Shown piece by piece: positions 771 through 55,900 of a stretch of DNA of 64,000 nt; within the stretch, counting starts at the first letter, position 1; each line of letters begins with the position of its first letter. The translations under genes were made by a program, and so were the position numbers. The stretch covers positions 248,001-312,000 of the forward strand of contig JABVCE010000019.1 of the NCBI GenBank assembly GCA_014905635.1, read 5' to 3'. Under the pieces are notes generated by a model, which was not told the DNA's origin, ran no database searches, and saw only the letters and a list, made by a program, of their open reading frames with translations. The stretch is from Scenedesmus sp. PABB004 (taxonomy: Eukaryota).

Positions 771-2716
<1,946 letters not shown>

Positions 2717-2862
2717 GCTGCTGGCGCCGGGGCGCGCGTGCGTGAGGGTGCGCGCGAGCGAGCACTGCGGCGGGCCGCGCGTGCGGCGAGGGACGGCGCC
2801 GGGCGCGGCGGCGGCCGGCGGCGTTTTTGGGGTGAGGGAGGGGGGGGGCTGGCTGGTGGGCT

Positions 2863-3202
2863 GCTGCGCCGCGCGTGCTGGGGCGCGGGGAGCTGTCGCG
2901 GCGGGGGCGTCCGGCCGCGATCTGGGCGCGGCGCGGCGGCGAACGGGCCTGCGGGAGGCGGACGAGCAAGATATTTTTCCAGTGACGCACCGGCGGTCGT
3001 GCGGCGGCGGCAGCCCACACCGCCGCCGCACTGCGCCGGGCGCGCGGCCGGCCCCGGGCGGCGCAGCACGCGCTGCGACCTCCTCCCGCAGCTCACGCGT
3101 CGCGGCCGCCGCCGAGCAGCAGCCGCGGGCGGCGCGGCGCGGGCGCCTGCTGCTGCGCTTGCGCCTGAGCGAGCTCCGCCGCCGCCGCCGCCGCCGCCAG
3201 CC
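2863..3202. repeat. Inverted repeat copy A (~340 bp), reverse complement of 5248-5592
   Basis: GACGAGCAAGATATTTTTCCAGTGACGCACCGGCGG here versus CCGCCGGTGCGTCACTGGAAAAATATCTTGCTCGTC at ~5458-5493; few differences. Confidence 0.95.
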
Positions 3203-3337
3203 GGGCGCCGCCCTCGCCCACCGCGTGCCGCGCGGCCGCCGGGCGCGGCTCAGACCCCCCACGGCCTGCTCCAGCCCCACGGCCGCGCGCGCCAAAACGC
3301 AGCCGCTCCGCGCTGCCGCGTCACACCCAGCAGTGCA

Positions 3338-3762
3338 TCACTTCATCTTGCCCTCGGTGAAGAGCACGCGCCGGTTGACCAGCGGGTCAAACTTCACGCG
3401 CTGCAGCCTGCGCGCCGGCCGGCGGCGGCGGCGCTGTAACGCGCCGCGCCGGCGGCGCGCGGCGGCGGCCCGGGCGCGCGCGCCGCGCGGCGGGGCCAGG
3501 ACGGCTGCGCCGCCGCGCGCGCGCATGCTGGCGCTCACTTGTAGGGCACGTTGCGGGGGTTCTTCTTCGTCACGTAGAAGTAGCCGGTCTGCGCGGTCGA
3601 CACCTGGGGAGCGGCGCGCGGGCGCAGCGGCGGCGGGCGCGCGGTGAGCGGACGCCGAGCGCGGAGCGCGAGCGCCGCGGCGGCGGCTGCGCGGCGCGGC
3701 CCGGCGCGGCGGGGGCGGACCAGCTTGATGAGGATCTGGCCGAGCTTCTTCTTGCCCGCCAT
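3338..3762 (-). CDS. rpl33: Organellar (likely mitochondrial) ribosomal protein L33, 3 exons
   Basis: MAGKKKLGQILIKL|VSTAQTGYFYVTKKNPRNVPYK|LQRVKFDPLVNRRVLFTEGKMK*, typical bL33 motifs. Confidence 0.93.
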
Positions 3763-4224
3763 GCCGCCGCCGCCGGCCGCTGCGCCGCCGCGCGGCCGTG
3801 GCAGGGAGCGGCGCCGCCGGCCGCCGCGCGAGCGCGCGCTGCTCCGCCCCGCCCCGCGCCCGACGCCCGGCGCGCTGCGAATCCCGGTGCGCGCTGGCTG
3901 CGCGGGCGTGGCCGGACGGCCGCGAGCGCGCGCCGCTGCTGCCGCTGCCGCCGCTGCCGCTGCTGCTGTCGCCGCTGCTGCGTGCCTGGCGCTGCGTGCA
4001 AGGCACGGTGGAGGAGGGGCAATGGAGCGATGGGTGAGACGCCGGGAAGGCGTTCAGCGGCGCCGCAGCTAAAACGCGCGGCCGCCGCCGGTTGCTCGAG
4101 GCGCCGCACCGCTGCCGGCCCCGGCCACACATCGCCTCCCACCGCGCTCACGACCTTGCACCGCCCGCGAGCGAACCAGCGCCGCTGCTGCCGCCCGCCG
4201 CAACCGCCCTCGCGAGCGCACGCG

Positions 4225-5357
4225 ATGCTGCCGGCGGCGCCGGCGCTCGTGCTGCCGTGGGAGCAGCAGCAGAAACCACGCAAGCAGCAGCAGCGCAGGC
4301 GGGGACCGCGTATGGAGGCGCGCGCGGAGCTGGTGCAGGCCGTCAAGTGCGCCGCCGCTGCTCTGCGACGTCGCGCGGCGCATGCATGCGCGCCGCCGCG
4401 CGACCCGCCGCCCGCCGCGGCGGGCGCGCAGGTACGGCGCGGGCGCCGCCGCCGGCGTCGCGGTGGTGGCGTGGCTGAAGCGCAAGATCGCTGGCCTCCC
4501 CGTCGTGGGCCTGCTGGCGACGCCCTTCCTCTGTGAGCCGCTGGCAGCGGCGCCGCCCGCCCGGCGCGCGGGGGCGCCACGCCGACCCTCCGCCGGCGCG
4601 CGGCCCGCGCCGCGCGCACGCGGCCCCGGCGCCGCGCCCGACGCGCCCGCCCCGCCCGCCCGGCGCCGTGGGCAGGCCTCATGCCGACGCTGCTGCTGGG
4701 CAGCGCTGTGGGCGCCGCCGTCGTGTTCGGCATCGACGAGGGCGACCCGCTGGCGGTGCAGCACAAGCTGCTGCCCAAGGCGCGCCGCCGCCGCCGCCGC
4801 CATGCGCCCGCGCCAGCTCGCGCCCGCGCCCGCACCGAGCCCGCGCCCGCCGCCACGCCGCGCGCAGGTGCGGCGGCAGCTCTCGCACGTCCACCGCGAG
4901 GCGGCCGCAGCGGCGGGCGAGCTGGGGCGCAGCTTGCAGGACCTGCACGCGCAGCAGATTGCTGCCGCTGAGCGCGCGGCGCGCGAGGTGCGCGCGCCGC
5001 GGCGCACCCCCCGCCCTCGGCGGCCACTGCGCGGCGCCCGGCCTGCGCCGCTGCCGGCTGCCGACGCGCAGCGCCCGCGCCCCTTTGCCGCCGACGCCGT
5101 TGCAGGGTGAGGCGGCGCTGTCGCGCGTGGCCGCGGAGCTGGAGCAGGCCGCTGGCGAGGCGTCGGCCGAGCTGCGCCCGACGGTCGCGCGGCACGCGCG
5201 CCGCGCGGCGCGCCAGCTCGACGCGGCGGCGGGCGAGGCAGATGCCTGGCTGGCGGCGGCGGCGGCGGAGCTCGCGCAGGCGCAGGCGCAGGCGCAGCAG
5301 CAGGCGCCCGCGCCGCGCCGCCCGCGGCTGCTGCTCGGCGGCGGCCGCGACGCGTGA
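4225..5357 (+). CDS. Hypothetical protein with hydrophobic segments followed by an Ala/Glu-rich coiled coil (5 exons; start at 4225 or 4312)
   Basis: Exons join in frame: MEARAELVQAVK|YGAGAAAGVAVVAWLKRKIAGLPVVGLLATPFL|GLMPTLLLGSAVGAAVVFGIDEGDPLAVQHKLLPK|VRRQLSHVH...|GEAALSRVAAELEQ...GGGRDA*. Confidence 0.65.
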
Positions 5358-5592
5358 GCTGCGGGAGGAGGTAGCAGCGCGTGCTGCGCCGCCCGGGGCC
5401 GGCCGCGCGCCCGGCGCAGTGCGGCGGCGGAGTGGGCTGCCGCCGCCGCACGACGCACCGCCGGTGCGTCACTGGAAAAATATCTTGCTCGTCCGCCTCC
5501 CGCAGGCCCGTTCGCCGCCGCGCCGCGCCCAGATCGCGGCCGGACGCCCCCGCCGCGACAGCCCCCCGCGCCCCCAGCACGCGCGGCGCAGC
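5248..5592. repeat. Inverted repeat copy B: last ~35 codons, stop and 3' flank of the hypothetical gene
   Basis: Reverse complement of 2863-3202. Confidence 0.95.
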
Positions 5593-36740: not shown

Positions 36741-38250
36741 GCGCGCGCACGCCAGGCGTCGGCGGCGGCGGGCAGGGGGCGCGCGGTGCTGCAGGCGCAC
36801 GGTTGGGCGCGCCGCGGGGCGGCGGCGGCGGACGCGGCGACCCGGGCGGCCACGGCTGTCGGTGGCGGCGGGCAGGGCGCGCGCTGCGGCTGCACCAGCG
36901 CGTCCGGCCGGTGCGCAGGGGCTGCGCCTCGCCTGCACACGCGCGTTGGATGTGCCGGGCTGCCCGAGTGGCGCACGAGTGCTGAGTTACTTACCGAGTG
37001 TGTCTCCACGGCATGCGCCCCACGCCGCACCCGCGACTCGAGCAGCCACGCGCTGCTGCCGGCAGGGATTCCCGAGAGCACCGCCCCCCCTCCGCATCAG
37101 CACAGCGGCGCGCCACGCCGTTTGGCGCCAGTTTATGCCCCAGCCGGCGCTCCAAGGCTGCAGCTTCCACCCGCTAGCAGCCCAACCGCAGGTTGCGTTG
37201 GAGTGTTCTGGGGCCGCCGGTCACCCGCCCCGGGGACAAGAGCACACGACCGTCCGTCGGAGTCGCGCGCGCGCGCGTGCGCCGTCACGCGCTGAGCCTG
37301 TCATGCAGCACACATGCGTGCGTTGCGCTGTGAAGAGAGCGAGAAGCTTGCCAACCGGCGAGGCACGGGAGGCGCGTGCGGCGCCGCGCGCGCGCGTATG
37401 GCGTTGAGGTTGTGCGAGGCCGAGGCAGAGCTCACAGATATCAAGGGCTGGGGCGCGCCCAGACCCTCCATGTTGGAACAGTCTCCCCCCGTGGTTTTAT
37501 GCAGCAGGACGCCAGCCACCGCGCCCCACGTGCAGCCGCCTCATGCAGCTGCGGCGCCCGCCAGTCTGGCCGCCGCCCCATGCCGCATGGGCGCCGCAGT
37601 GGCCCAGCCGGCACCCCCCTCCCTCCGGCAGCGCCCCCGGTGGTCGAGGCCTTACATGCAAGAAGGCGCGATCCCGCCCTTGATTTGGTGTAGGTGTGAC
37701 AGCAGGAAGCCCTGGCGCATGGGCTGGAGTGTGCCGGCCCGCAGGTTGGGTTGTGGGGCCGCCGCTGGCCGACACGCTGGCAAGGCAGAAGAAGAACGCA
37801 CGACCGCCCCTGAGGCTCAGCCGTGCACGCGCTGAGTGGGTTATGCAGCACGCACGCGTTGCGTGGTGGGGTAAAGAGAGAGCACAAGCAGGCGAGACAA
37901 GCAAGTGATGCGGCGTTGGCGTGTGGCGAGGCGAGGAAGCAACAAAAAGGCGAAGCCCCCCCCCCCCATTCCCTCCCTTTGGGATGGTTGGGGCAGCAGC
38001 AGCACACCTGCTGCCACGCCCCCCCCCCCCCCCCCCGCGCGTGCCGCCGCCGCCGTACGCAGCGCAACTAGAGCCGAGCCCAGCCACCCGTGCAGCGGCG
38101 GGCCGCGGCAGCGCGTGACCAGTGTGGCGGCCGCCCGATGCCCACAGCGCCCCGGGGATGTGCCCCAACGCGTGCCGCCGCCGCTGGGCTCAGCGATGGC
38201 CTGGGGTCCAGGGTCCGAGGCCCTGGACAGCGCCCGGCCGCGCGGCGGCA

Positions 38251-39345
38251 TCAGCCACCCAGGCCGCGCGCCACGGGCACGGCGACAGCCTTGTCGGTGT
38301 TGGTGCCGCCGCCCAGCTGACCATAGTTGTTGTATCCCCAGCACGCCAACGCGCCGGTTTCGAGCAGCGCGCACGTCGTGAAGTGCGCTCCACGCACGGT
38401 GCGCACGCCGGCCAGGCGCGGAGGCGCGGCGCTGGCCGGGTTGGACAGCAGCACAAACGACGACGGAACCAGCGTGCCAGCGTTGCCCGCACCCATGGCA
38501 GAGTTGTCGCCGAGCTGGCTGGTGTAAACGATGGAGGATGAGAGGCTTTGCAGATTCGCCGCGCCCCAGCGCTACACCTCGCCGCCGGCCACCACCGCAC
38601 ACGAGTGAAAGCCGGCCAGGCCTAGGCTGGACACGCCGGTCAGAGCGGTGCCGCCAGAGGTCACGACCGTCACGGGTGATGTGCTACTGACGATGCCGTT
38701 GTTGCCCAGCTGACCCTGAATGCCAGAGCCCCAGCACTGCGTCGAGTTGTCGGCCGCCATAACCACGCAGCAGTGGTCGGGGCCGCACGCTGCGTCCCGC
38801 GTGCCGGCAATGACGGCAGGACGCGGCCCCCAACACTGCGTGGTGCCGTTGGCCAGCAGCGCGCACGTGGTGGTGCCCCCACCGCCGGCGATGCTCGTCA
38901 CGTTGCCTGTCACAGCTGTGACCACGACCGGGGTGTTGCTGTCGGTTGTCGTGCCGTCGCCCAGCCGGCCCTGAGTGCCAGCATTGAAGCCCCAGCAGCG
39001 CATTGTGGTGTCGTTGAGCAGCGCGCAGGTGTGCGAGACGCCGCAGGCGAGGTCGACCACGCCGGTCAGGGTGCCGCCGCTCGCGTCGCGCCACACGGTC
39101 ACAGGGATCGCAGCGTCTTGGGTGCTGTTGACGCCCAGCTGCCCAGATGACCCGTACCCCCAGCACCGCGCGGTGCCGTCCAACATCACTGCGCAGGTGT
39201 GCAACCAACCTCCGCGCACAACTTGCGCATGCCGGTGAGCAGCCTGCCGTCCACGTCGATCACAGTGACGGGGACTTTGCTGCCAGCCAGAGCTGTGGAG
39301 TTGATGCCCAGCTGGACGACGCGCCACGCCCTACGAACGGCTGCA
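38251..39345 (-). pseudogene. Intronless RCC1/BLIP-II repeat fragment with in-frame stop and frameshift
   Basis: Repeats such as GWLHTCAVMLDGTARCWGYGSSGQLG and GVSHTCALLNDTTMRCWG; in-frame TAG at 38572-38574 with the same frame continuing to 38251; frame change at ~39215. Confidence 0.8.
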
Positions 39346-43000: not shown

Positions 43001-44007
43001 GCAGTACGCGGCCGCGGTCGAGGCCGCGACGTCCGTGAGCGAGCGCGACCTGGCGCCCAACCCCGCGGCCGACGAGGCCGGCGGTGAGCGCGCCGCGCCG
43101 CGCCCTGCGCCGACGCGAGCCCGCGCGCCGGCGCCGACGCTGCACCGCGCACCGCGGCGCCGCGCCGCGCACGCGCGCCCGCGCTTACGCCCGCCGCCGC
43201 CGATGCCGCTGGCGCAGGCCCCAGCACGGCCAGCCTGCTGAGCGAGGCCAAGGAGGTGAAGAAGGCTGCCGCCAACAACTGGGCGGCGGTCGAGCTCAAG
43301 CGCCGCAACTGGGCCGAGGCCGCGAAGCAGGCTACCAAGGCACGGCGCCTGCTGCTGCCGCGCCGCGCTGCGCCGCGCCGCGGCGGCGCGCGGCGCGCGC
43401 TGTCCTTCCGCCGCGCCGGCCGTGCTGACCGCCCGCCGCGCGCGCGCGTCCGCGTCGTCCGCGCCCGCGCGCGCCTCTGCGCAGGTGCTGGAGCTGGACC
43501 CCTGCAACGTGAAGGCGCTCTACCGCCGTGCCAGCGCGCGCATGGGCCTGTCGGAGCTGCTCGAGGCTGAGCTGGACGTGAAGGCCGGCCTGCTGGTCGA
43601 GCCGGACAGCGCCGACCTCGCGGCCCTGCACCGCCGCCTCAAGTGCGCGCGCGCGGCGGGCGAGCGCGGGCGGGCGGGCACGGGCAGGCGCAGGGCGCCG
43701 CGGGCGGGGCGCGAGGGCCGCGGCGGGCGCGGGCGCGGGGCAGCGCGCGGCGCCAGCGAACCGGCCGCCGGGCGCCGCTGCCGCTCGCAGGGTGGCGCTG
43801 CGTGAGCTCAACAAGAAGGAGGCCAAGCTCTATGGCAAGATGTTTGCAGCGCTCGGAGCGCCGGGCAAGGCCGGCGGCAGCGCCGCGGCGGCTGAGGCCG
43901 ACGCCGCGCCGGCGCCGATGGAAGCGGAGCCGGCCGCGCCCGCGCCCGCGTCCGCGCCCGCGCCCGCGGCGCCCGCGGCGTCGCCGGTGGTGCACGCCGC
44001 CGCGTGA
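40088..44007 (+). CDS. Multi-FKBP + TPR peptidyl-prolyl isomerase (FKBP62/ROF1-like)
   Basis: [108 protein letters not shown]. Confidence 0.95.
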
Positions 44008-44196
44008 GCGCGCGTGCGCGGCGAGGGGCCGGCGGCGGCGGCGACTGGGGCGGCCAAGGCGCTGAAAGTGTGTCGGTGGCGGCTCTGGGGTGGCGGCGGC
44101 GCCGCGCTGTGGTGCACAGGCGTGTTTAGGCAGGCGTGAGGGGGTCGGTGGGCCGCGCGCGCGGTCGTGCGGGCGAGCGAGCGAGGGGCGAGTCCA

Positions 44197-45235
44197 GAGA
44201 GAGGCAGGCGGCGGCGTGGGCGGCTGCGAGGGGCCGGGCGGTGTTGCGGCAACCGGCGCTCTCCCCTTCGGACCTTCGCCCCTTCACCCCACGCACCGCT
44301 CAGCGGTGCGCGCGCGTTGCAGCCGGCGGTCATGACCGCCAATTGATCAGTCTCACAGATGCCGCGCGGCCAGGTCATGGCCTGAATAAGCTTTGATTGG
44401 ATCAATCAAAGTCGCGACAGGGTGCTTTGCCGCTGCCATCAGCAAGACACAGCGCAAGAGATGAAGGCAGTGCTCCAGTTCATCCGGCCGCGAGGGCCGG
44501 GGTGCGTCGCAGCCGCGCCGGCCCGAGCTTAGGCGCCGTTCACAGTGCCGTGGCAAGTGCCGTGCAGCGTGCCCGCGAACAGGACTCCTTTCCCACCCCA
44601 ACTGGCAATGCGCTGGCCCAAGAGAGGACGCACAGTCAGGGGTTCACAGAGTTGTTCACGCGTTGCCGCCCGCGTCGCCGCCGCACTGCGCCGGAACGCG
44701 CGCCGCGGCCGCTGCGCCGGTGTACATGTAGCGAAGCCGCAGGCTTTCGCACGTGAGCGTGGCAGCGCCGCGAACACGCGCGCCGTCGGTGCCCGCGCCC
44801 CGCGCGGCCGTGCTCGTGTCCGACTCGCCGTGGGCGTTGAACGTGACCACGCCCTCCACCCACACGGGCGCGCCCGGCGCCAGCGCGCGCAGCGTGGGGG
44901 CCTTGGCCACGAGGTGGTCCAAGCCGGGGCCCATGGCCACCTTGGCGACGACCGCCGCAGTCACACCGCCGCCCTCGACGGCGTCAAAATGCACCTGCGC
45001 GCGCGGGACGGCCGTGAGCGGGCGCGGGCTCGGGGTGGGCCACAAACCCTCGTCGCCGCCGTCCCCAATCCCCCCCCCCCCCCCCCCCCCCAAACCCCGC
45101 GGCGGCCGCACCTCAAAGCTCTTGTCATGAAGGCTGGCGCCTAGCCGTAGCCGTCCAGCAGCTCCGCCAGCGCCAGCCCAAACGGCATACTGCGCAGGCG
45201 CACCGCGAGGCGCACCGCGAGGCGCCGCTGGCGTT
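44197..45235. repeat. Direct repeat copy A (~1 kb): degenerate copy of the last exons and 3' flank of the RCC1/SH3b-like gene
   Basis: Aligns with ~48961-49985; near-identical over ~44277-44785, more diverged beyond, with an in-frame TAG at ~45141-45143 (- strand). Confidence 0.93.
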
Positions 45236-45679
45236 CAGGGGCACCAAGGGCAGTCGGTCGTGGCGGGGGTCGGCGGCGTCACCACACGGCTTCGCTGCGG
45301 CTGGCGGCGGCGGTGCTGCTCTGAGGCGAGAGCGTTGAGGACCTGGAGGCAGGTGTTTAAGCCGCTCAAGTCGTGTAAAAGGCACTGTGCATGTCGGAAT
45401 CCGCCTCTGCCCGTTTGCTGCGCCGACAAGCGTCCAAGGCATGCGCACGCATGCGCAGGGGCTAAGCACGATGCTGCATTTGGGGTTGCGCTATGCGCAG
45501 AGCTCGCGACTCATGCGCTTCGTGCCCTTCGGGCTGCCGGGTGCGGGCAGGGCCAGCTGTCCGTGGCATTAGCGCCAGCTGTAACACTAGCACGAGTGGT
45601 CGCAGCGCGTTGAGGATCCGCGCATCCAGGATAGCGAGCACCACCGCCGACACCTCCGACACCTTCTCACCGCTGCCTC

Positions 45680-47545
45680 ATGGCCCCCCCCTCGCGCGCG
45701 CGGCTGCTGTTGGTGGTTCTAGTCATGCTTGCACTCGTGCTGGGCGCTGCCGGGCACGAGCAAGCCGGATACGGCAGCGGCGGCCGCGGCGGCGGGCCGA
45801 TCTTTCGCATCAGCGGCTTCAAGGACGTCACCGGTGCGCGTGAGGGCTGCCATCGGCAGCCCAATGTCAGAGCTGCCACTGGCGCTGGCGCGGCTCGCCA
45901 ACCGCGACTGTCCTGCCCGCGCGCCGCGCTGCCACGCCGCAGCCTACATCTTTCAGCGCGTGCAGGCGCGCCTGGCCAAACAGCTGAATGTGACGGTTAA
46001 GTACGGTGCGTGAAACAGAGGTGCTGCGCCGCTGCCTGCAGCCGCGCCCGACACTCACGCCAGCGAGCGCCTGCGCGTGCCGGACACCCCCAAACAGTGC
46101 GCAACGCTGACGAGGCGCACGCCGACCTGCGCAACGCGTCCTACTCGCTGGTGCGACGCACGCGGTGGCTTGTTGGATTTGGCCCCAGCCGCCGCCCGCT
46201 GCCGAGCAGCTTGTCCTGTGCTCACTCGCCACTCGCCCGTTCGCGCGCGACATGCAGGTCATGTTTAGCTACGACGATGTGTTGTCGATGGCGCTGCAAG
46301 AGAACTACTCAAACATCGCTGCTGCGTGGCCAGTGCACGGCAGCGGCATGGTGCGGGCAGCTGGGGGGCGCCGCCGCTGCCGCCGCCGCGCTATCGCCCA
46401 TCGCAGCCGCCAGCACGCGGCTGCGACCCCGCCCGTGCCTCGCCGTGCTGCTCGCGCCGCCACGGCTCCAGGCGCTGTGCGGCACGATCAACGTTGGCAG
46501 CGGCAAGGTGCGCGTCGGCATCGACACCAACACGGGTGCGCCTGGCCACGCACCATGGGGGCTGGTTCCCCTGGCTGCCGCCGAGCCGGCCCCTCACCCC
46601 ACACGCCCCACCCTCGCCTAGGCTATGCGCGCATGCTGCGGCAGCAACTGAAGAAGACGCTCAATGCGGCAGACTATGCGGCGATCAACTGGGTTTATGC
46701 TGGCGCCACAAACCTGCGCTACGAGCAGCTCAGGGAAGGCACGCTGGTGTGCGGCCGCAGGGCAGGGCGCGCGGCGCCGCGGGCGGCCTGGGCGCCCCAC
46801 CTGAGCCGTCTGCCTGCCGCCCCGCGCCGTGCTGCCTTGCGCCACGCTAAGGACGCGACACTGCTCAACGTGCCTTTCACGTCCCTGCTGCCCGCCGGCA
46901 TCAGCTGCCGACCGTTCTACCTGGTGACAGGCATCATCCAGGTGGGGCGACGCCGCGTGCGTGTGATGCGAGAGCAGCAGTGCGGGTCGCAGCCTGCGCT
47001 CGACGGCGGCCGCTCAGCACGAGCCGACAAACGGGCTGCCCGCACCCCCCCCCCCCCGCGTGCACGCGCCGGCGCGCGCAGGGCTCGGTTGGCGTGGTGC
47101 AGCGGAGCGCGCTGCGTGATGAGGCGCGCGCGCGCAAGCTCACGACGTTCCTGGGCGCCTTCAAGAAAGAGGTGCTGGGCATGCTGCTCGATCCTGCAAA
47201 CACCAAGCGTGGCCTGGCTGGGTTCTACAACACCACGCCAGAGGTGGCGGCTAGCATCTACACCAGCCTGTGGCAGCCCGACGGTGCGCCACTGCGCGCC
47301 GCCCTGCTGCCTGCGTGCGGGGCTGGTCGAACTCCCGCGGCGCTCACACTGTCTGCTCGCTTCAACCCCCGCTTCGCCGCCGTGCTTCAATGCGTGCAGG
47401 CCTGCTGACCGCTTTCTGCTTCAACGCCACGCGGCTGTCCAACACCGAGTCAATCTTTGCTGCCGACACTGGCATCCCAATCCCCAAGCAGCGCTGGTGG
47501 GTAAAGGACTGGGGCTGCACACACCGCGATGGTACGCTCAACTGA
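45680..47545 (+). CDS. Secreted protein resembling bacterial NMT1/THI5/SsuA-type ABC substrate-binding proteins, 9 exons
   Basis: Signal peptide RLLLVVLVMLALVLGAAG; exons join in frame to VGIDTNT|GYARML...AGATNLRYEQLREGTL|DATLLNVPF...IQ|GSVGVVQR...LTTFLGAF; TGTAA at 47871. Confidence 0.7.
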
Positions 47546-48960
47546 GTGCGCTTGCTTGACGCGCCACGTCGGCCCACAACAGAGCGCAACCCGATTGCAC
47601 CGTGAAGGCGACGCTCTGTTGTTTTCACTGCACTGCCTTGCCTCTTGATCTGCTCTCTGTGGCTGAGACGTCTTGGTACCTTCTGCCACTGCTGTGGCCG
47701 CGGAAGAGTTCGCTGGCATTGATTGTCTTGGACGCCGTCGAACGCGCGCGGCCGCAGTGCGCTCGATTGGCTGCGGCGCACGCAGCACTCGCGTGTTGTA
47801 TGCGGGTTCGTCCGCACGCCCAGTGCGGTGCGCGTCCCAGCGCGCCTGGGGGGAGTTGTGGTGCGGGAGTTGTAAAAGAGTGGTCCCTCTTTTGCGCCTT
47901 TCTGCCCAGCACGGCGTGTGGCCCGCGGGGCCGATGGCATGTGGTTGCGTGGCTGGCAGTGCTGGGAGTGCTCGGCGACGGGGGTGAGCAGACAGAGCAC
48001 ACGTGCACTCACCCGCATGCAAAACGAAGACGGCAATCGCCCAGCTGCATGCGCGTTTGGGTTGGGTTGGGCGTGCTGCGCCGGTGCCGGCATGTGAGGT
48101 ACCAGTGCGAGCCCGCGGATTCGCCAGGCCATGTTGCGGCGGACGACCTGCTCAGCCGATGAATCGTTGCTCTACGTGCTCGGCAGGCGCTGGCCACACG
48201 GTGGCCTGTGGCTGAGGTGCGCGTGCAGAGCACAGCGGCGGCACGGCGGCAGTGGCCGCGCCTGGCGGCAGAGTGCCGCTCCACGCAGCACCCGGCTGGC
48301 GGCGAGCGGCGCCCCCGTGGTGTTTGCACGGCTTGCTGCGTGTGCCGCTGCCTCTGTGCCGTCACTGAGCACGCTGCACTCCCGGGGCGGTTGATGGCGT
48401 CGGACTGGTTGGCGGGGGCGCGCGCGCATTGGCGGGGGTGCTGATCGGCGCCTGCGGGGGTGGTTGGGGTACGGTAGGTCTTCTGGTGGCGGCGGCGGGC
48501 TGCTGAATATTGTTGCTATTGGAGGCAGCGCGCCGCCAAGAGGGTGCGGGTGGGGCAATGGGTGGATGTGGGCTGCTGACCCCGCCGCGCGCAGGTTTTT
48601 GCAGTTTGGGTCCACGTGAGCCCATTAGCCTGTCGTTGTACTTGTACCATGCTCTCTAACTCTGTCCTTTAAGGACGCGTGGCCAAATGCCACGCAAGCG
48701 CTAGGCGTGAGCACTGCCTGGAGTGTTTGCATCCGGCGGCCGGTGTGCAGGCGCGGCCCCATGGTGGCGGCGCGTGGGCAGGATCGCCCCTCCCGGGCGC
48801 GACGCCTAGGACGGTGGTTGGCTGCCCTCGTCGAAGTGACATTGTTATTGTTGAGTGAAGTTGGTGTGGGTTGCACCGGTTTTACCCAATTGTCTCCAGT
48901 CCACACCTCTCCTTGGGGGGGGGGAGCTGAGGTTCCTGCATCACCGTCCCGGCAAGGAGC

Positions 48961-49985
48961 GCAGAGAGGCAGGCGGTGGGGCGGGCGGCTGCGAACAGCA
49001 GCAGCCCCCCCCCCTCGCCCCTTCGCCCCACGCACCGCTCAGCGGTGCGCGCGCGTTGCAGCCGGCGGTCATGACCGCCAATTGATCACAGATGCCGCGC
49101 GGCCAGGTCATGGCCTGAATAAGCTTTGATTGAATCAATCAAAGTCGCGACAGGGTGCTTTGCCGCTGCCATCAGCAAGACACAGCGCAAGAGATGAAGG
49201 CAGTGCTCCAGTTCATCCGGCCGCGAGGGCCGGGATGCGTCGCAGCCGCGCCGGCCCGAGCTCAGGCGCCGTTCACAGTGCCGTGGCAAGTGCCGTGCAG
49301 CGCACCCGCGAACAGGACTCCTTTCCCACCCCAACTGGCAATGCGCTGGCCCAAGAGAGGACGCACAGTCAGGGGTTCACAGAGTTGTTCACGCGTTGCC
49401 GCCCGCGTCGCCGCCGCACTGCGCCGGAACGCGCGCCGCGGCCGCTGCGCCGGTGTACATGTAGCGAAGCCGCAGGCTTTCGCACGTGAGCGTGGCAGCG
49501 CCGCGAACACGCGCGCCGTCCGCGCCCCACGCGCCCCACGCGGCCGCGCTCGCGTCCCACTCGTCGTGCGCGTTGACCGTCACCACCGCCTCGACCCACA
49601 CGGGCGCGCCCGGCGCCAGCGCGCGCAGCGCGGGGGCCTTGGCCACGAGGCGGTCCAGGCCGGGGCCCATGGCCACCTCGGCGACGACCGCCACGGTCAC
49701 GCCGCCGCCCTCGACGGCGTCAAAGTGCACCTGCGCGCGCGTGCGTGCGCGGCGGCAGGACGGCTGTGAGCAGGCGCGGGCGCGGGCCACACGCCCAAAA
49801 CCCTCGTCGTCATCGCCGTCCTGCACCCCAGACCTAAACCCCGCCCGCCGCACTCTTGAACCGCACCTCGAAGCCCTTGGCCGTGAAGGCCGGCGCCTGG
49901 CCGTAGCCGTCCAGGAGCTCCGCCAGCGCCAGCCCAAACGGCATGCGTCGCAGGAGCAGCGCGAGGCGCACCGACGCGCCCGTGC
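48961..49985. repeat. Direct repeat copy B (~1 kb), overlapping the functional 3' end of the RCC1/SH3b-like gene
   Basis: Paired with 44197-45235. Confidence 0.93.
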
Positions 49986-52900
49986 GCAGCCACAGCCCGA
50001 GCGTCGGGCCGCTGCGCTGGTGCACGTAGAGCGTCGCTGGCCGCTCGCCGGCGTCGGACGTGGGCGGGAGGGAGAAGAACTCCCCGAGCGTGAAGTTGAC
50101 CGGGTAGGGCGCGGCGCCGGTCGCGAGCAGCTGCCAGCCGCCGCGCGTGCGCCCCGCCGTCAGCGCGCCCGTGAGGCGCAGCGCGAGCCCGAGCTCCAGC
50201 GGCGCGCGCGCGCGCGCCGGGGGCGCCTCAGGGACGTAGGTCCCAAACGGCAGCGCCGCGCGCAGCGCGAGCGCGGCGGGCGTGAGCGACGAGACGAAGA
50301 GCTGCCCGGCCGCCGTGTACTCGCGCTGGCGCTCGACAGCGTCGGGCGCCGCGCCGTCGAGGGCGCGCGCGAAGTCAAAGGGGTCCCAAGCGCGTGCCGT
50401 TGTGCTGAAGTGCCCGTCCACGCTCAGACCGACCTGGCGCACCATCGCGTGGTGCGTGACCTCCACGTCCAGCCGCCCCGTCGCCGCGGCGCCGCCGCCG
50501 CCGGCCGTCGCAGCGGCGTCGAGCAGCGCCGGGCCGGCGAGGTTGAGGTGTAGTGGCACGCCGTGCAGCGCCCAGAGGAAATCACCGTGGCAGGGGTTGG
50601 CCGCGACGCAAAACGCGCTGTCCGGGATCAGCTGCGCGCGCGGCGGCGCGTGGAGGCGGGCTCAGGGCTTGCCGCGCGCCGTGGCACCCGCTAACGCGCG
50701 GGCTGCGGGGCACGAGCGCCTGGGCCTCACTCAACCCTCAACCCTCAACCCTGAAAAGCCCTGTCCTAAACCCTGAGCTCCTGAAAGGGCCCCTTGCGCC
50801 CCAAAAGCACTCACGTCCATGAGGTCATACAGGAAGCGGCCGTCGGGCCCGGCGAGCCACGGCACCGCGCGGCGAACGAGCGGCTCGAGCCCGCCTGTCG
50901 CGCCGGCGACGCCCCACACAAAGCTCTGGCGCTCCAGCGGCCCCCGCGCGGGACGGGCAGCCCGCGGCAGGAGCGGTAGAGCGCGGCGACCGCGCCCGCC
51001 GCGGCGCCGACGCCCGGCAGGCCGCGCGTCGCGTTGGCCGCGCCGCGCCGCGCGGCGAGGTCGGCGCGCAGCGCGGCGCTCAGCGCCGCGGGCGGGCCGT
51101 CGCGCAGCGCGGCGCCCGTCGCGACGGGGAGGCCGCAGCCCACGTGCGGCCCCGACGGCGCCGGCGCCGCGGCGGTGAGGTAGCGCGCGACGGCGCTGGC
51201 GACGCTCAGGGGCACCAGGTCGGACAGCGCCAGGCGGTCCGCGCGCGCAAAGAGTGTCGCGTTGCCGAGCGGCCCCCAGCTGCCCAGACGCCAGGTCGCG
51301 AGGTCGACGCCGCGCAGGCAGTCCAGGCCCGGGCAGCCGGCAGGCGGCGTGGCAGCCAGGAGCGCGCTCGGCAGGCCGGGCTGGGCGAGCTCGGCGCCGG
51401 GCGCTGCGCGGGGTGCGGGGCGGGGTGGCGGGGTCGGCGCGGCCGGCGGCGCAAAGCAGGCGCGGCGGCGCCAGGCGTCCCGCTGCTGCTAAACCCAGAC
51501 CCCGGGCCTCACCGATGCGCTGGCAGACCCGGCGGCGTCGCACGAGCCACCGCAGGCCCCCGCGGCGCAGGGGAAGGTGCAGGGGCTGCCGGCCGCGAGC
51601 GGCTGCCCGCCGCGGCTGCACTTGCCCGTCGCGGGGTCGCACGTGCGCGGCGCGCGGCAGGGGCCGACCGCGGGGCAGGCGACGCCGGTGCAGTAGTCTG
51701 CGGCGCGGCGGCGCGGGACGGGCTCAGGGCTCAGGTCTCACGGGCCAGGGCTCGGGGCTCGCGACCTCGACCCCGGGCCCCTGAGCTAGCAGCCCCACTG
51801 GACCCCTTGAACCCTCATAGATCCCAACTAAAACCCTTGACGCACCGCAGTAGTGATCCACAAAGTATGAGTGACCGCCCGAGGTCTCGCAGCTGGAGTC
51901 CACCCAGTGCGACCCGCGCGCCGGCGCCGCGACAGGCACCCAGCCCTCGAGCGGGCGCCCGCCGAGCTCTGCGCGCGCGCGCACCCAGCAGTACGGGTCG
52001 GCGGCCTTGTCGGCGCAGCCGCTCGTCTGGCGGCTCGCGTCGCCGTAGTACAGGAAACGTGCGCCGGGGGCGAAGTCCTGGTCTGACAGGCGCAGCGCCT
52101 GGTCGAAGCAGGGGCGCGCAAAGAGCGAGACGCCGGCGACCGGGAACGACCGCACCTGGTGGCAGCCCCACGTCGGCGGGTGCAGCGCTGGGCGGCGGCG
52201 GCGGCGAGAGCGGCGGCGTGAGCCGGAGGGGGGCGGCCGGCGTCGCGGGCGCCGGGCGGCGGGCGCGGCGCGCGGCGCGCACCCTCGCACGCGGCCGTGG
52301 GGCAGCCGCCGACGCGCTCGCCGTCCGCGCCGGCGTCTATCCAACCGAGCTGCTGGTAGCCAGCGCTGTCTTGGTAGCGCACCTGGTGGGGCGGGGTTTG
52401 AGGAGTGCAGGGTTTGAGCAGGGGCCTAAACCCTGGTGCGCCGCACGGCCGCGGCGGCGCCGGCCAGGCCCGCGCGTGCGAGGGCGCGGCGGGGGCGGCG
52501 GCCCTGCACACCATCAGCCACTCGCGCGTTGCGCCGTCGGGCTGCGCCTCGGCCGGCGAGGCGCCGCCGCCGGCGCCGGCGCCGGCCGCGCCCGCCTCGG
52601 CGCACGCGCGGCGCTGCGTGGAATTGGCCACGTAGTCAAACTTGTCGCACTGCTTCAGCAGGCCCACCGCGACGCTGCTGCACGGCTCGGCGACGATCGG
52701 CAGGACGCCCGGCGCCGCGGCGGTACGGCACTCGACGTCGCGCAGCTCCGAGGCTGCGTGCGCGCGGCGCGGGCGCGAGAGCGGGGGAAGGAGCCTGGTG
52801 AGCGCCGCGCGCCCACGGCGTGCGCCAAGCCCTGCGCCTTGCGGTGCGCGCCCTCGTGGCCCCCTCAGCCCACACAGACCCAGGCCCTAGGCCCAGGCGC

Positions 52901-55900
52901 TGCGCCGCGCACCGCACACTCCGACCAGCGCCTCCTGGTCGCCGGCGTCGCCGCCGCAGAACGCGTCGGTGAAGCCGCCGGGCCGCGCCTCGCGGGAGAC
53001 CGGCAGGAAGCCCCTGGCAGCGGCGGCGGCGACGCCGGCAGCAGTGCGAGCGCGTGGGCGAGGGCGCGCAGGCGCATGCGAGTGCAGACAGGGGCGCGCG
53101 GCGTGAGCCGCACCTGAACGTGCGGTCCCCCGCGCGGGCGCTGGTCGCGGCAAACTCCACCTCCGCCCAGCACGTGCCGCCCTGCCCGCCCGCGGCCGCG
53201 GCCGCGGCGGGCGCGCCGCCGCAGGCGCTCGTCTGCGTTGACCGCGCATTGACCAGGGCCACGTGGTCCCCGCGCACCAGCGGCGTGGCCAGCACCGCAG
53301 GCGCGGCCGCGCAGGGCGCGGACCGGAGCACGAGACCCTCCCGCGCGGACACCTGGCGGCAGCCGCCGCCGGCGGGGGCTGGCGGTGGCGCCGGCAGTGC
53401 GGGAACGGGCAGTCAGCGGCGCGCCGGGCGCGCGAGAGGCGGCGGCAGAGTGCACCGCACAGGCTCACGGCCGCGGCGCGGCGCGGCTCACCCCACCTTG
53501 CACCGGGCACTCGGCGGCGGGGCACGAGGCGAGCAGCGCGCCGGCGTCGCAGGCGTCGCTCGTGCGGACCCACCGCCCCCGCACGCCGCCGACGCGAAGC
53601 TCAAGCCAGCAGCCGTCCGGGCAGCTCACGCCCTGCGCGGCACGCGGGCGCGCGGCGTGCGGCGCGGCGCTCAGCGTGCGGCGGCGGGTGCGAGGGCCGG
53701 CACCGGCGGGGCTTGGCAAACACCGCGCGCGCCGCCCCACCTTGGGCGCGCCCTGGGCGGGGATGATGAGCTCCACGCGGCGGCAGCGGGCGAGCGTGGC
53801 GGCCGGCGGCGCGCCGGTGCTGCAGGGCTTGGAGAATACCGGCAGGCCGCCGGCCGCGACGACGGCGCGGCACTCGGTGCGGGGCGGCGCGCCGTCCTCA
53901 ACCATCAGATCACCTGCACGGTGGGCGGTGGGGCGCCCAGGGGCGTGGGCGTGGGCCGCAGGCGCGGCGCGCGGCGCGTGGCGCGGCGCGCTCCCCGCCT
54001 GCCGCCTGCCGCGCGCCGGCCCCTCCGCGTGCTGCGGGCGCGCTAGCCGGGCGGGCGGGGCCCTGCCACCGCGCACCGGGGATGCGCACATAGCCCAGCT
54101 CCCCGTTCTCGTTGGAGCCCCAGCAGCTCACGTCGCCGGCGAACGAGAGGGCGCAGGTGTGGAAGTCGCCGGCCGAGACGCGCGACACGCCCGCGACGCC
54201 CGCCGCCGCCACGGGACCGAGCGGGAAGGACCCGACCTCGCCGTTGCCGAGCTGGCCTGCGGGCGGGCGGGCGGGCGGGCGGGCGGGCACGCTGGTGGGA
54301 GGGGTCGGGACGGCAGGCTCGGGGCCGGCTAGGGCAAGCCCTGGGCGAGCCCAGCTGCGTGCGGCGCGCGCGCGTGCCGGCGGCGCGGCGGCGGCGCGCC
54401 TTGTTCCGGCTCGCCCCAGCAGCGGACGTTGGGCGTCGCGGTGTCGGTCGGCTCGACCTCGAGCGCCGCGCAGCTGTGCGCCCAGCCCGCGGTGACGGCG
54501 GCCACGCGCCCGACGCCCGGCGCGGGCGCGCCGGGGCTCAGCTGCGGCGGCGCGCCCGCCTGCACGGGCAGGCCCAGCTGGCCCTTGTGGTTGTCCTGCG
54601 GCGCACAGAGGGGAGAGTCGGGACGCAGGCCGGCCGCGGCGCGCGCGCGGATGGCGGGCGCGCGGGCGGCAGGCTGCGCAAGGGCCGTGGGCGCAGCGGC
54701 CGCTCACCCCCCAGCAGACGACGCCACCGGATGCGCCGCCAAGGCCGGCGCAGGTGTGGAGGTAGCCTGCTGCAATGTGGATTACGTTGGCCAGCCCGGG
54801 GACCTTGACCGGCGAGAGCCGCTGCTGCGTCGTGCCGTCGCCCAGCTGGCCAAAGTCGTTGGCCCCCTGCGGCGGCGCCGGCGCCGGTCGCGCGCGCGCA
54901 GCGCCGGCGCCCGTCGCGCGGCGCCGCGCTGCGCAGCAGCTCACGCCCGTGCACATGCCCGTGCGCGCGTGCGCGCCCTGGTTGCCGCCCGGCGCTCACC
55001 CAGCAACTCGCGGACCCGTCGGCGTGCGCGACGCACGTGTGGCGGGTGCCTGCGCTCACGGCAACGACGCCCGACAGCCCAGGCACCACCACGGGCGAGA
55101 GCCGATCCTCAGTGGTGCCGTCCCCGAGCTGGCCAAACCTGCGGCGGGGGGGGGGGGGGGGGCTGTGAGCTAGCAGTGTGCCGAGCGGCTCAATGGCGGC
55201 TCAATGGCGGCGTGCCGCTGCGCAGCACCCTGGGGTGCGGCGGCTGCACGGCGGCGGCGGCGGCCGCACCGGTTCGAGCCCCAGCAGCTGAGCGTGGCAT
55301 CCTGCAGCACGAGGCAGCTGGTCGAGTCGCCCAGTGACATGATGTGCCGCGGCAGGGCGCCCCCCGGCGCCGCAGCGGCGGCGGTCACGCCCGGCACGAG
55401 GCGCGGCGTGAGCTGGCCCACGCGCGTGCCGATGCCGAGCTGGCCGTCTGCGCGGCGCGGTGGGCGGGGTGTGGCGTGGTGGCGAGCGGATGCGGATGAG
55501 TCAATGCGCGGGGCAGCCAACTGCGACCGCGAGCGCACGCACGCCCACCCCTGCGCCGCTCGCGCACTCACCCTCGTTGCTGCCCCAGCACGAGACGCTG
55601 CCGTTGGTGGCGACCGCGCAGGTGTGCTCGTTGCCGGCGGCGACCACGACCGCGTCGGTGAGGCCGACGACGGGGTGCGGGACGGGGCTCGGGAGCGTGC
55701 CGCCCGTGCCCAGCTGCCCGCGGCTGCGCGCGCGCACGCAGGCGCGCGCGGGGCGAGCGGGCGGGCAGGCGGGCGGCGCGGTCAGCGCGGCGCGGCAGCT
55801 GGGCGGGGCGGCCGGGGGCCGCGGCGCCGCCGCCGCTCACTCGTTGTCACCGAAGCAAACCGCGCGGCCGCTCTCGAGGACGGCACACTGCGCGGCCGCG

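Follow-up and report, generated by a model that had tools for sequence, protein, structure and literature searches.

The plus-strand interval 45680-47545 of a 64-kb stretch of the Scenedesmus sp. PABB004 genome (contig JABVCE010000019.1, positions 248,001 to 312,000; hereafter the window) carries a nine-exon gene for a predicted secreted protein of the NMT1/SsuA/THI5-like group of type-II periplasmic binding proteins. Reading the three forward frames across 45000-48300 revealed coding pieces that switch frame at GT..AG borders. Joined, the nine exons form a 990-nt open frame of 329 amino acids (aa) plus stop. All eight introns are GT..AG and 86-140 nt long, with a donor that is mostly G/GTGCG (slash, splice site) and a CAG acceptor. 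Seven of them have lengths that are not multiples of three, and only intron 6 (105 nt, stop-free) permits read-through. A spliced protein-to-genome alignment guided by a relative, P0059, and made with our own script, which accepts GT donors only, returned the same eight introns and phases as the manual model. An earlier note, written from the sequence alone, had proposed an intact, intron-rich nine-exon frame of about 300 aa; the agreement between the manual and the homology-guided model bears out the single intact frame, and its length is corrected here to 329 aa. The parts of the gene are as follows.

45680-45833, plus strand: exon 1, opening at the first in-frame ATG after a stop; signal-peptide-like N-terminus of about residues 1-25 (45680-45754), then a Gly-rich linker and the first β-strand motif, F-R-I-S-G-F-K-D-V-T; the next intron is in phase 1
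45943-46005, plus strand: exon 2, with the N-glycosylation sequon NVT67
46098-46150, plus strand: exon 3, with the family motif V-x-N-A-D-E-A-H and sequon NAS85
46258-46350, plus strand: exon 4, with the family motifs S-Y-D-D and P-x-H-G and sequon NYS106
46472-46535, plus strand: exon 5, with the family-wide Cys124 and the start of G-I-D-T-x-T-G; the next intron is in phase 1, within the Gly codon
46622-46746, plus strand: exon 6, with the Y-A-R helix start, the A-G-A-T-N-L-R motif and an internal Met that is the start of the database model P0001
46747-46851, plus strand: intron 6, 105 nt, in frame and free of stops, wrongly kept as 35 residues in the annotated protein
46852-46941, plus strand: exon 7, encoding the D-A-T-L-L-N strand, a eukaryote-only cysteine (Cys203) and the I-Q(G) hinge motif
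47082-47283, plus strand: exon 8, the helical C-terminal part of the fold, with sequon NTT264
47400-47545, plus strand: exon 9, ending with the TGA stop (47543-47545); contains sequon NAT290 and two eukaryote-only cysteines, Cys288 and Cys321
47871-47875, plus strand: TGTAA, candidate polyadenylation signal, 326 nt 3' of the stop

TGTAA serves as the polyadenylation signal in chlorophycean algae. The pentamer occurs nine times in the window, counting both strands, and three of these cluster at this locus (45374, 45580 and 47871). The one at 45374 probably ends an upstream plus-strand gene and the one at 47871 the binding-protein-like gene. A tblastn search with the spliced protein found no second copy of the gene in the window.

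The deposited annotation of this gene is defective. A word-based search with exon 8 retrieved one protein, the 218-aa hypothetical protein HT031_005094 of Scenedesmus sp. PABB004 (P0001), encoded on a 741-kb contig. Its model, within 46622-47545, begins only at an internal Met of exon 6 and continues through intron 6 as if it were coding, and exons 1-5, including the signal peptide, are missing from it. Alignment A1 places 35 extra residues in P0001 that are absent from the 14 other sequences. Because these residues occur in P0001 only and the start lies inside exon 6, we conclude that the annotation is truncated and intron-retaining. Two eukaryote-like fragments of 184 aa (P0107 and P0108, from contigs of up to 63 kb) have the same internal Met start as the truncated Scenedesmus model. 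They are uninterrupted over the counterpart of exons 6-9, and come either from genomes without introns 6-8 or from spliced models.

To assign the fold we used P0059 (332 aa), the closest full-length relative, rather than the window protein itself; the two are 58% identical over 313 aa (residues 11-319). P0059 comes from contigs of at most 1540 bp, and is probably mRNA-derived because such contigs are too short for a gene with so many introns. The AlphaFold2 model of P0059, built from 83 aligned sequences, has a mean predicted local distance difference test (pLDDT) score of 91.2 and a predicted template modelling score of 0.84. The top Foldseek matches of this model are 3qsl, 3un6, SsuA, TauA and Thi5 (E values from 2.5e-12 to 1e-10). 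In a structural comparison, the highest scores were obtained with 3un6 (26.7), ThiY (3ix1; 25.1), 3qsl (25.0), NrtA (24.8), the thiamin-binding 4nmy (24.4), Thi5 (24.3), PqqT (23.9), SsuA (23.2) and TauA (22.2), followed by MqnA/MqnD-type enzymes (about 19) and other type-II binding proteins (about 15). The P0059 model thus has a type-II periplasmic-binding-protein fold of the NMT1/SsuA/THI5-like group, and the NitT/TauT-type resemblance that the earlier note had read from motifs is matched at the level of structure; the motifs that it quoted are near-invariant in the family. The feature neighbours of P0059 in the ESM Atlas are NMT1-type clusters in all 10 rows among the matches listed (scores 0.95-0.97). 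The ESM Atlas entry for P0001 proved unusable: the stored model has a pLDDT of 0.35, and its template modelling scores reach at most 0.34.

Direct sequence searches do not recover this relationship. The translations of eight exons gave nothing significant against Pfam (IBIN, at E 0.14, is the only match to report), P0001 has no match in Pfam and NCBIfam, and searches of the Protein Data Bank (PDB) with P0001 and with profiles A1 and A2 returned nothing meaningful and no significant match to Thi5 chains. The connection runs through intermediates: the family profile leads to two distant members, P0109 and P0110, and P0110 leads on to SsuA 3e4r and to PF09084 proteins. P0109 and P0110 match the family profile at E ~1e-29 and pass the Pfam NMT1 cut-off of 20.5 bits with 24.1 and 24.6 bits. 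P0110 matches P0052 (E 1.4e-16), P0053 (E 3.8e-15) and SsuA 3e4r (E 0.0011), and its relatives, from Aquabacter and others, have precomputed PF09084 hits and are named ABC (ATP-binding cassette) transporter substrate-binding proteins or simply ABC substrate-binding proteins. Some relatives of the window protein are already called 'SsuA/THI5-like domain-containing protein' or 'NMT1 THI5 like' in databases. We regard the gene, its fold and its superfamily as close to certain, and conclude that the family is a distinct NMT1/SsuA-like subfamily lying below current Pfam thresholds.

This subfamily is small and patchily distributed. An exhaustive phmmer search with P0001 yielded 37 proteins at E <= 0.001 among 1.84 billion representatives, and a profile search of a 5.8-billion collection yielded 83 clusters at the same threshold among the 8000 candidates scored. 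Among prokaryotes, sampled at one genome per species, a relative is encoded at 23 loci, corresponding to 23 of 185,579 species. These fall into at least six phyla and include cyanobacteria, Chromatiaceae, Methylococcaceae, Victivallales, Opitutia, Fastidiosibacter, Desulfovibrionaceae and Burkholderiales; judged by their names, the carriers are largely lake organisms. A tblastn search of 72,556 plasmids with P0058 found no match. Cyanobacteria form the largest named group (Snowella, Microcystaceae, Synechocystis spp. and Ca. Synechococcus calcipolaris), and other named bacterial members come from Thiodictyon, Methylumidiphilus and a Pseudomonadota metagenome-assembled genome. The named eukaryotic members belong to Scenedesmus, Chlorella sorokiniana, Chlorella ohadii, Botryococcus braunii and Paulinella micropora; C. 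sorokiniana has two paralogues on one contig (P0006 and P0048), one of them bearing the name 'NMT1 THI5 like'. Neither the 37 representatives nor the 83 clusters contain a land plant, Chlamydomonas, a red alga or a glaucophyte, so the broad vertical conservation across green algae and plants that would have spoken against horizontal acquisition is not seen. The spliced window protein can be aligned over its whole length with full-length members; besides its match to P0059, it is 51% identical to Botryococcus P0088 over 327 aa and about 40-45% identical to the bacterial members.

Several members are fused to other modules. DUF4114 fusions occur in a Synechocystis clade (P0014, P0061, P0063, P0064 and the open reading frame (ORF) at 350-1948 of locus L007), P0097 carries a PEP-CTERM module, and P0055 has a beta-propeller-like tail. 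P0062 has an alpha/beta-hydrolase-like N-terminus (DUF676, E 4e-7), and an ORF of locus L016 (5762-7861) is a second long fusion. The N-terminal domains of these last two do not align with each other and are unrelated, and an argument from recurrent hydrolase fusion was therefore dropped.

The eukaryotic members share features that are rare or absent in bacteria. In the window protein, two Arg at the N-terminus precede a hydrophobic run of 13 residues (highest Kyte-Doolittle mean over 10 residues 3.57, at residues 11-21), and a hydrophobic N-terminus is likewise found in all five other eukaryotic rows that reach the N-terminal motif. The signal peptide and five sequons listed in the earlier note (NVT67, NAS85, NYS106, NTT264 and NAT290) are all present, the signal peptide being judged by hydrophobicity and by the orthologues. 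Feature counts in 12 eukaryotic rows, of which 7 are full length and 5 are fragments, were set against those in 81 bacterial rows. Cys203 and Cys288 are each found in 11 of the 12 eukaryotic rows and in none of the 81 bacterial ones, and Cys321 in 10/12 versus 2/57; Cys124 is family-wide (6/8 eukaryotic, 75/81 bacterial). The sequon at position 264 is present in 8/12 eukaryotic and 2/81 bacterial rows and that at position 290 in 5/11 and 3/81, while conservation is lacking at 67, 85 and 106, where 1/7, 2/7 and 2/7 eukaryotic rows have a sequon. The cysteines, sequons and hydrophobic N-terminus fit passage of the algal proteins through the secretory pathway, which we infer from these sequence features. 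Across the family, 71 positions are at least 90% conserved, of which the window protein keeps 62. Every polar position in this set is retained except N219, which is a V in the window protein. Its four cysteines include no adjacent pair.

We built a quick IQ-TREE phylogeny (LG+C20) of 91 rows of at least 250 aa, leaving out five shorter fragments and rooting on P0109/P0110. The seven eukaryotic rows and P0096 form one clade nested among bacterial rows, with a Shimodaira-Hasegawa-like approximate likelihood-ratio test (SH-aLRT) support of 95. P0096 is probably eukaryotic too, because it is sequon-rich and has a predicted signal peptide. Within this clade, the three Chlorella sequences group together (100), as do the window protein, Paulinella, P0059 and Botryococcus (99). 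The 13 rows of the main cyanobacterial clade (99) fall in another part of the tree, and this clade is not sister to the eukaryotic one. In a 49-row LG+G4 tree, the eight eukaryotic rows lie on one side of a branch with SH-aLRT 98, in a set of 10 rows that includes two unnamed ones. The Paulinella micropora protein P0004 (425 aa) sits inside the green-algal subclade beside the window protein (SH-aLRT 90, 99) and not with the cyanobacteria, a placement that suggests alga-to-Paulinella transfer or contamination. Its gene model lacks an internal stretch of about 20 residues.

Intron positions give the transfer a relative age. A metagenome scan with P0108 found no match; a second scan gave loci L034 and L035 (63% GC), whose exons are 70-89% identical to Chlorella sorokiniana P0006. 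L034 holds two multi-exon Chlorella-type copies arranged tail to tail, at 1706-3420 (plus strand) and 3832-5482 (minus strand), which echoes the P0006/P0048 paralogues on one C. sorokiniana contig. The spliced alignment of L035 has about ten introns. In its interval 3066-3300, the intron after the R-Y-Q codons appears to have a GC donor, and a 10-nt micro-exon there is probably an artefact of the GT-only aligner. Two of the eight window introns lie at the identical nucleotide and phase in L035, one after F-K-D-V-T and the other in the Gly of D-T-x-T-G/Y (slash, codon boundary); two more are 1-2 nt apart in the pairwise alignment and the rest differ. Rough arithmetic (8 x 10 introns over about 990 sites) predicts about 0.08 coincidences, so two exact matches are unlikely to have arisen by chance. 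The gene therefore already bore introns in a eukaryote before the Scenedesmus-type and Chlorella-type copies split. A single ancient bacterial origin of the eukaryotic genes is thus likely, and the picture is either of one old acquisition with patchy retention or of later alga-to-alga and alga-to-Paulinella movement. Bacterial ancestry, which the earlier note had proposed as horizontal acquisition, best explains both the tree and the patchy distribution; given the single eukaryotic clade and the shared introns, the transfer was ancient rather than recent.

In bacteria, the genomic context offers no link to an ABC importer. We examined 19 of the 23 bacterial loci by crude longest-ORF calling, having dropped L013 as too short and L021-L023 as partial matches. 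None of the 19 has an importer permease or ATPase within 3.5 kb (Pfam, 137 ORFs). The sole ABC ATPase, in L002, combines ABC_tran with ABC_tran_Xtn and is of the ABC-F type, not an importer; unrelated solute-binding genes lie nearby at two loci (SBP_bac_11 in L009 and SBP_bac_1 in L019). No neighbouring gene recurs from one taxon to another in the 19 loci. Moreover, about half of the bacterial members have no export signal: among 79 rows reaching the N-terminal motif, a few of them near-duplicates, 37, mainly from cyanobacteria and Thiodictyon, have at most 27 residues before the first strand and no hydrophobic segment. Of the remaining 42 rows with long N-termini, 36 have a signal-peptide-like segment. 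The description of the window gene as a domesticated ABC substrate-binding protein thus claims more than is known. In bacteria this subfamily is a stand-alone gene, and the ABC label, inherited from the superfamily, is not supported for this branch because importer genes are missing within 3.5 kb and many members have no export signal.

The explanation we favour is that the locus is a functional, secreted algal gene of an orphan NMT1/SsuA-like subfamily, acquired in one old bacterial transfer and acting as a stand-alone solute binder; we put the probability of this whole account at roughly 55%. The gene would be nuclear and its product would enter the secretory pathway via the N-terminal signal peptide, folding, as the P0059 model predicts, into a two-lobed 'Venus-flytrap' type-II binding protein. 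Transfer from a bacterium to a eukaryote would have preceded the split of the Scenedesmus-type and Chlorella-type copies, with introns gained since. The protein may act beyond the plasma membrane, whether in the periplasmic space, in the wall or in the medium, by closing over one small polar solute. The putative pocket would comprise the near-invariant D49, E78, H80, S94-Y95-D96-D97, H117, D139-T140, Y144, R146, T172, R175, N190 and Q214. When conservation is set against secondary structure, the near-invariant residues lie where strands end and helices begin, in both lobes; in the binding-protein fold, ligands bind at such places. The solute would be captured, buffered or handed over without a dedicated ABC partner. 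That the protein is an extracellular binder rather than an enzyme is, taken by itself, an evenly balanced call.

As to the ligand, the earlier note had named a thiamine precursor or a sulfonate. Rfam searches found no thiamine pyrophosphate (TPP) riboswitch at E <= 1 in 44500-48500, nothing at gathering score in the whole window (a SNORD23-like match at E 0.62 is noise) and no riboswitch of any kind in 20 bacterial loci of the subfamily. The thiamine-precursor idea thus gains no support from the riboswitch searches.

Several points weigh against the favoured explanation. Pfam NMT1 (PF09084) gives no hit for the eight exon pieces, P0001 or P0059, and none of 15 family members tested matches it at E <= 1; the closest Pfam match of this kind among the 15 is that of one member to Phosphonate-bd, at E 0.018. 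The structure is that predicted for a 58%-identical stand-in, and the pocket was assigned from conserved residues set against secondary structure rather than from coordinates. Transcription, splicing, secretion and glycosylation are predictions from sequence for this gene, with export of the window protein judged from hydrophobicity and orthologues. The lack of an export signal in 37 of 79 rows, together with near-invariance at about a quarter of positions, many of them His, Asp, Glu and Tyr, is no less compatible with an enzyme than with a passive binder. On the side of origin, a constrained 49-row tree that forces the eukaryotes and the main cyanobacterial clade together is not rejected (log-likelihood difference 12; approximately unbiased test, p-AU 0.21), and the root of the main tree depends on two very long-branched outgroup rows, with weak deep nodes. 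The donor may be cyanobacterial, even plastid-related, because a sister relation to the main cyanobacterial clade is not rejected.

The alternative that survives best is an enzyme built on the binding-protein fold, comparable to the Thi5 4-amino-5-hydroxymethyl-2-methylpyrimidine phosphate (HMP-P) synthase, MqnA, MqnD or DszB, whose substrate would be extracellular in algae and cytoplasmic in cyanobacteria. Besides the missing export signals, it could account for the lack of transporter context (0/19 loci), for the richness of the 71 near-invariant positions in His, Asp, Glu, Tyr and Arg, and for the fusion of P0062 to a DUF676-type hydrolase-like domain. We nevertheless consider an enzyme unlikely, if clearly worth keeping in view: the structures that match best belong to true binding proteins (3un6, ThiY, 3qsl, NrtA and 4nmy), further members carry surface or export modules as fusions (PEP-CTERM in P0097; DUF4114 in P0014, P0061, P0063, P0064 and L007), and the hydrolase-like domain of P0062 is unrelated to the N-terminal domain of the L016 fusion. 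The Thi5/NMT1 HMP-P synthase is marked by a catalytic Lys/His pair and a cysteine-cluster motif. With four cysteines, none adjacent, the window protein has no such cluster.

A second alternative concerns origin and holds that the gene came from the cyanobacterial ancestor of plastids by endosymbiotic transfer and then descended vertically with many losses. Cyanobacteria are indeed the largest named group of the family, the forced grouping with the main cyanobacterial clade is tolerated by the approximately unbiased test, and the shared introns make the gene old in algae. Against this stand the best trees, in which the eukaryotic clade is not sister to the cyanobacterial one, and the many independent losses required, given the few named eukaryotic carriers among the 83 clusters and 37 representatives. 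The distribution is, moreover, equally patchy in bacteria (23 of 185,579 species in at least six phyla, mostly from lakes). We therefore hold a plastid origin to be improbable, and a single old transfer from bacteria remains our preferred account of the gene's ancestry.

More speculatively, the family could capture nutrients independently of any transporter and could have passed between members of the freshwater plankton that belong to different domains (cyanobacteria, purple sulfur bacteria, methanotrophs, green algae and Paulinella). The near-invariant Tyr, His, Asp, Arg and Thr residues at the lobe interface would hold either a metal ion together with a helper anion or some other scarce cationic nutrient. 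We regard this as a long shot. If the idea is true, the algal proteins would have a role at the cell surface similar to that of phytotransferrin-type proteins, as an independent second invention from another branch of the binding-protein fold.

It is very doubtful that the product is the classical substrate-binding part of an ABC importer of prokaryotic type, with the permease and ATPase genes lying at other places in the algal genome. Among solved structures, the closest are components of NitT/TauT-type importers, and the closest sister subfamily that Pfam recognises carries the ABC substrate-binding annotation; against this count the absence of an importer permease or ATPase near any of the 19 bacterial loci and the many members without export signals. 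Green-algal nuclear genomes are not known to encode plasma-membrane importers of the prokaryote-type, binding-protein-dependent kind. The earlier note had reported no permease or ATPase in the window; RCC1 is indeed all that Pfam detects there, in a spot check of 18 long stop-free stretches.

The coding sequence has a GC content of 63.6% and a GC content at third codon positions (GC3) of 82.7%, compared with 76% GC in the introns, 64-67% in the flanks and 77.3% for the window as a whole. Two regional troughs, at about 44000-50000 and 37000-39000, fall to GC fractions of 0.67-0.72 against the window average of 0.77, and the one at about 44-50 kb takes in non-coding DNA. The trough is regional and not gene-specific, because the non-coding flanks are low as well. 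RCC1 repeats (PF00415, E 5.5e-16; stop-free stretch 53913-54995, minus strand) are the sole Pfam match among the 18 scanned stretches. Within this interval, GC3 is 0.875 and 0.964 in two RCC1 exon stretches that Pfam confirms, on 40 and 56 codons. A broader GC3 screen of neighbouring segments was set aside as circular, since it had picked them for high GC3. The earlier remark that the codons of the gene are less GC-skewed than those of its neighbours is thus borne out only in part. Since the transfer is ancient, as the single eukaryotic clade and the shared introns indicate, the lower GC is not the footprint of a recent arrival. Long poly-C runs lie upstream of the gene (45067-45092) and inside intron 7 (47046-47058).

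A recent transfer, or bacterial contamination of the assembly, could appeal to the position of the locus in a GC trough and to the mainly bacterial membership of the family, but we reject it as next to impossible given eight spliceosomal-type introns with the host donor consensus, the 741-kb contig, a GC3 of 83%, intron positions in common with the Chlorella-type locus L035 and a trough that also covers the non-coding flanks.

Full-text literature searches, whose reach excludes bioRxiv supplements, found no mention of HT031_005094 and, among the matches listed, no paper on this subfamily. A study of horizontal gene transfer in Scenedesmaceae (PMC13315243) contains none of the terms NMT1, THI5, SsuA and sulfonate in its main text and six supplements, and the accessible part of PMC11839794 does not mention NMT1 or binding proteins. 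What appears to be new, as far as sequence can tell, is an orphan NMT1/SsuA-like branch spanning bacteria and eukaryotes with a secreted algal form; the link to the superfamily is already present in database names. The analysis corrects a truncated, intron-retaining annotation and defines a compact, highly conserved NMT1/SsuA-like subfamily that current Pfam misses, orphan in bacteria and predicted to be secreted in several green algae. Because the Scenedesmus-type and Chlorella-type copies share introns, the move from bacteria to algae can be dated as old, and the gene is a clear example of bacterial ancestry combined with fitting to the eukaryotic secretory pathway by a predicted signal peptide, sequons and new cysteines. 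Were the ligand a limiting freshwater nutrient, the family would represent a new extracellular scavenging system common to different domains of life.

Among known systems, the NitT/TauT-type binding proteins (PF09084, PF13379 and PF16868; SsuA, TauA, NrtA, CmpA, ThiY and PqqT) share with the family the logic of a strand followed by a helix-start motif. The family D-T-x-T-G-Y aligns with the G-S-S stretch of SsuA (P0110/3e4r alignment), and an export signal is predicted for the algal member and about half of the bacterial ones. In contrast to these proteins, the family reaches only about 9-15% identity in structural alignments and lies below Pfam thresholds, has near-invariant motifs of its own (N-A-D-E-A-H, S-Y-D-D, H-G-G, A-G-A-T-N-x-R, D-A-T-L-L-N-P-P and Y-Q-G), has no ABC operon context (0/19 loci) and includes many members without a signal peptide. 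Fungal Thi5/NMT1 is a cytosolic suicide enzyme, whereas the algal protein has a predicted signal peptide and sequons, no adjacent-cysteine cluster, no significant sequence match to Thi5 chains and no TPP riboswitch at its locus. The Candida albicans Ca3427-type proteins (PF22384, PDB 2x7p) are another subfamily, fungal and without detectable sequence relation. The closest outgroup detectable by sequence is formed by the Aquabacter-type NMT1-family proteins, relatives of P0109 and P0110, which reach family members at E values from 1e-16 to 1e-29. They have the N-A-D-E-A-H, D-T-D-T-G-Y-A-R, A-G-A-T-N-L-R-Y and D-A-T-L-L motifs in common with the family, but are recognised by Pfam NMT1, annotated as ABC substrate-binding proteins, and differ in the C-terminal third.

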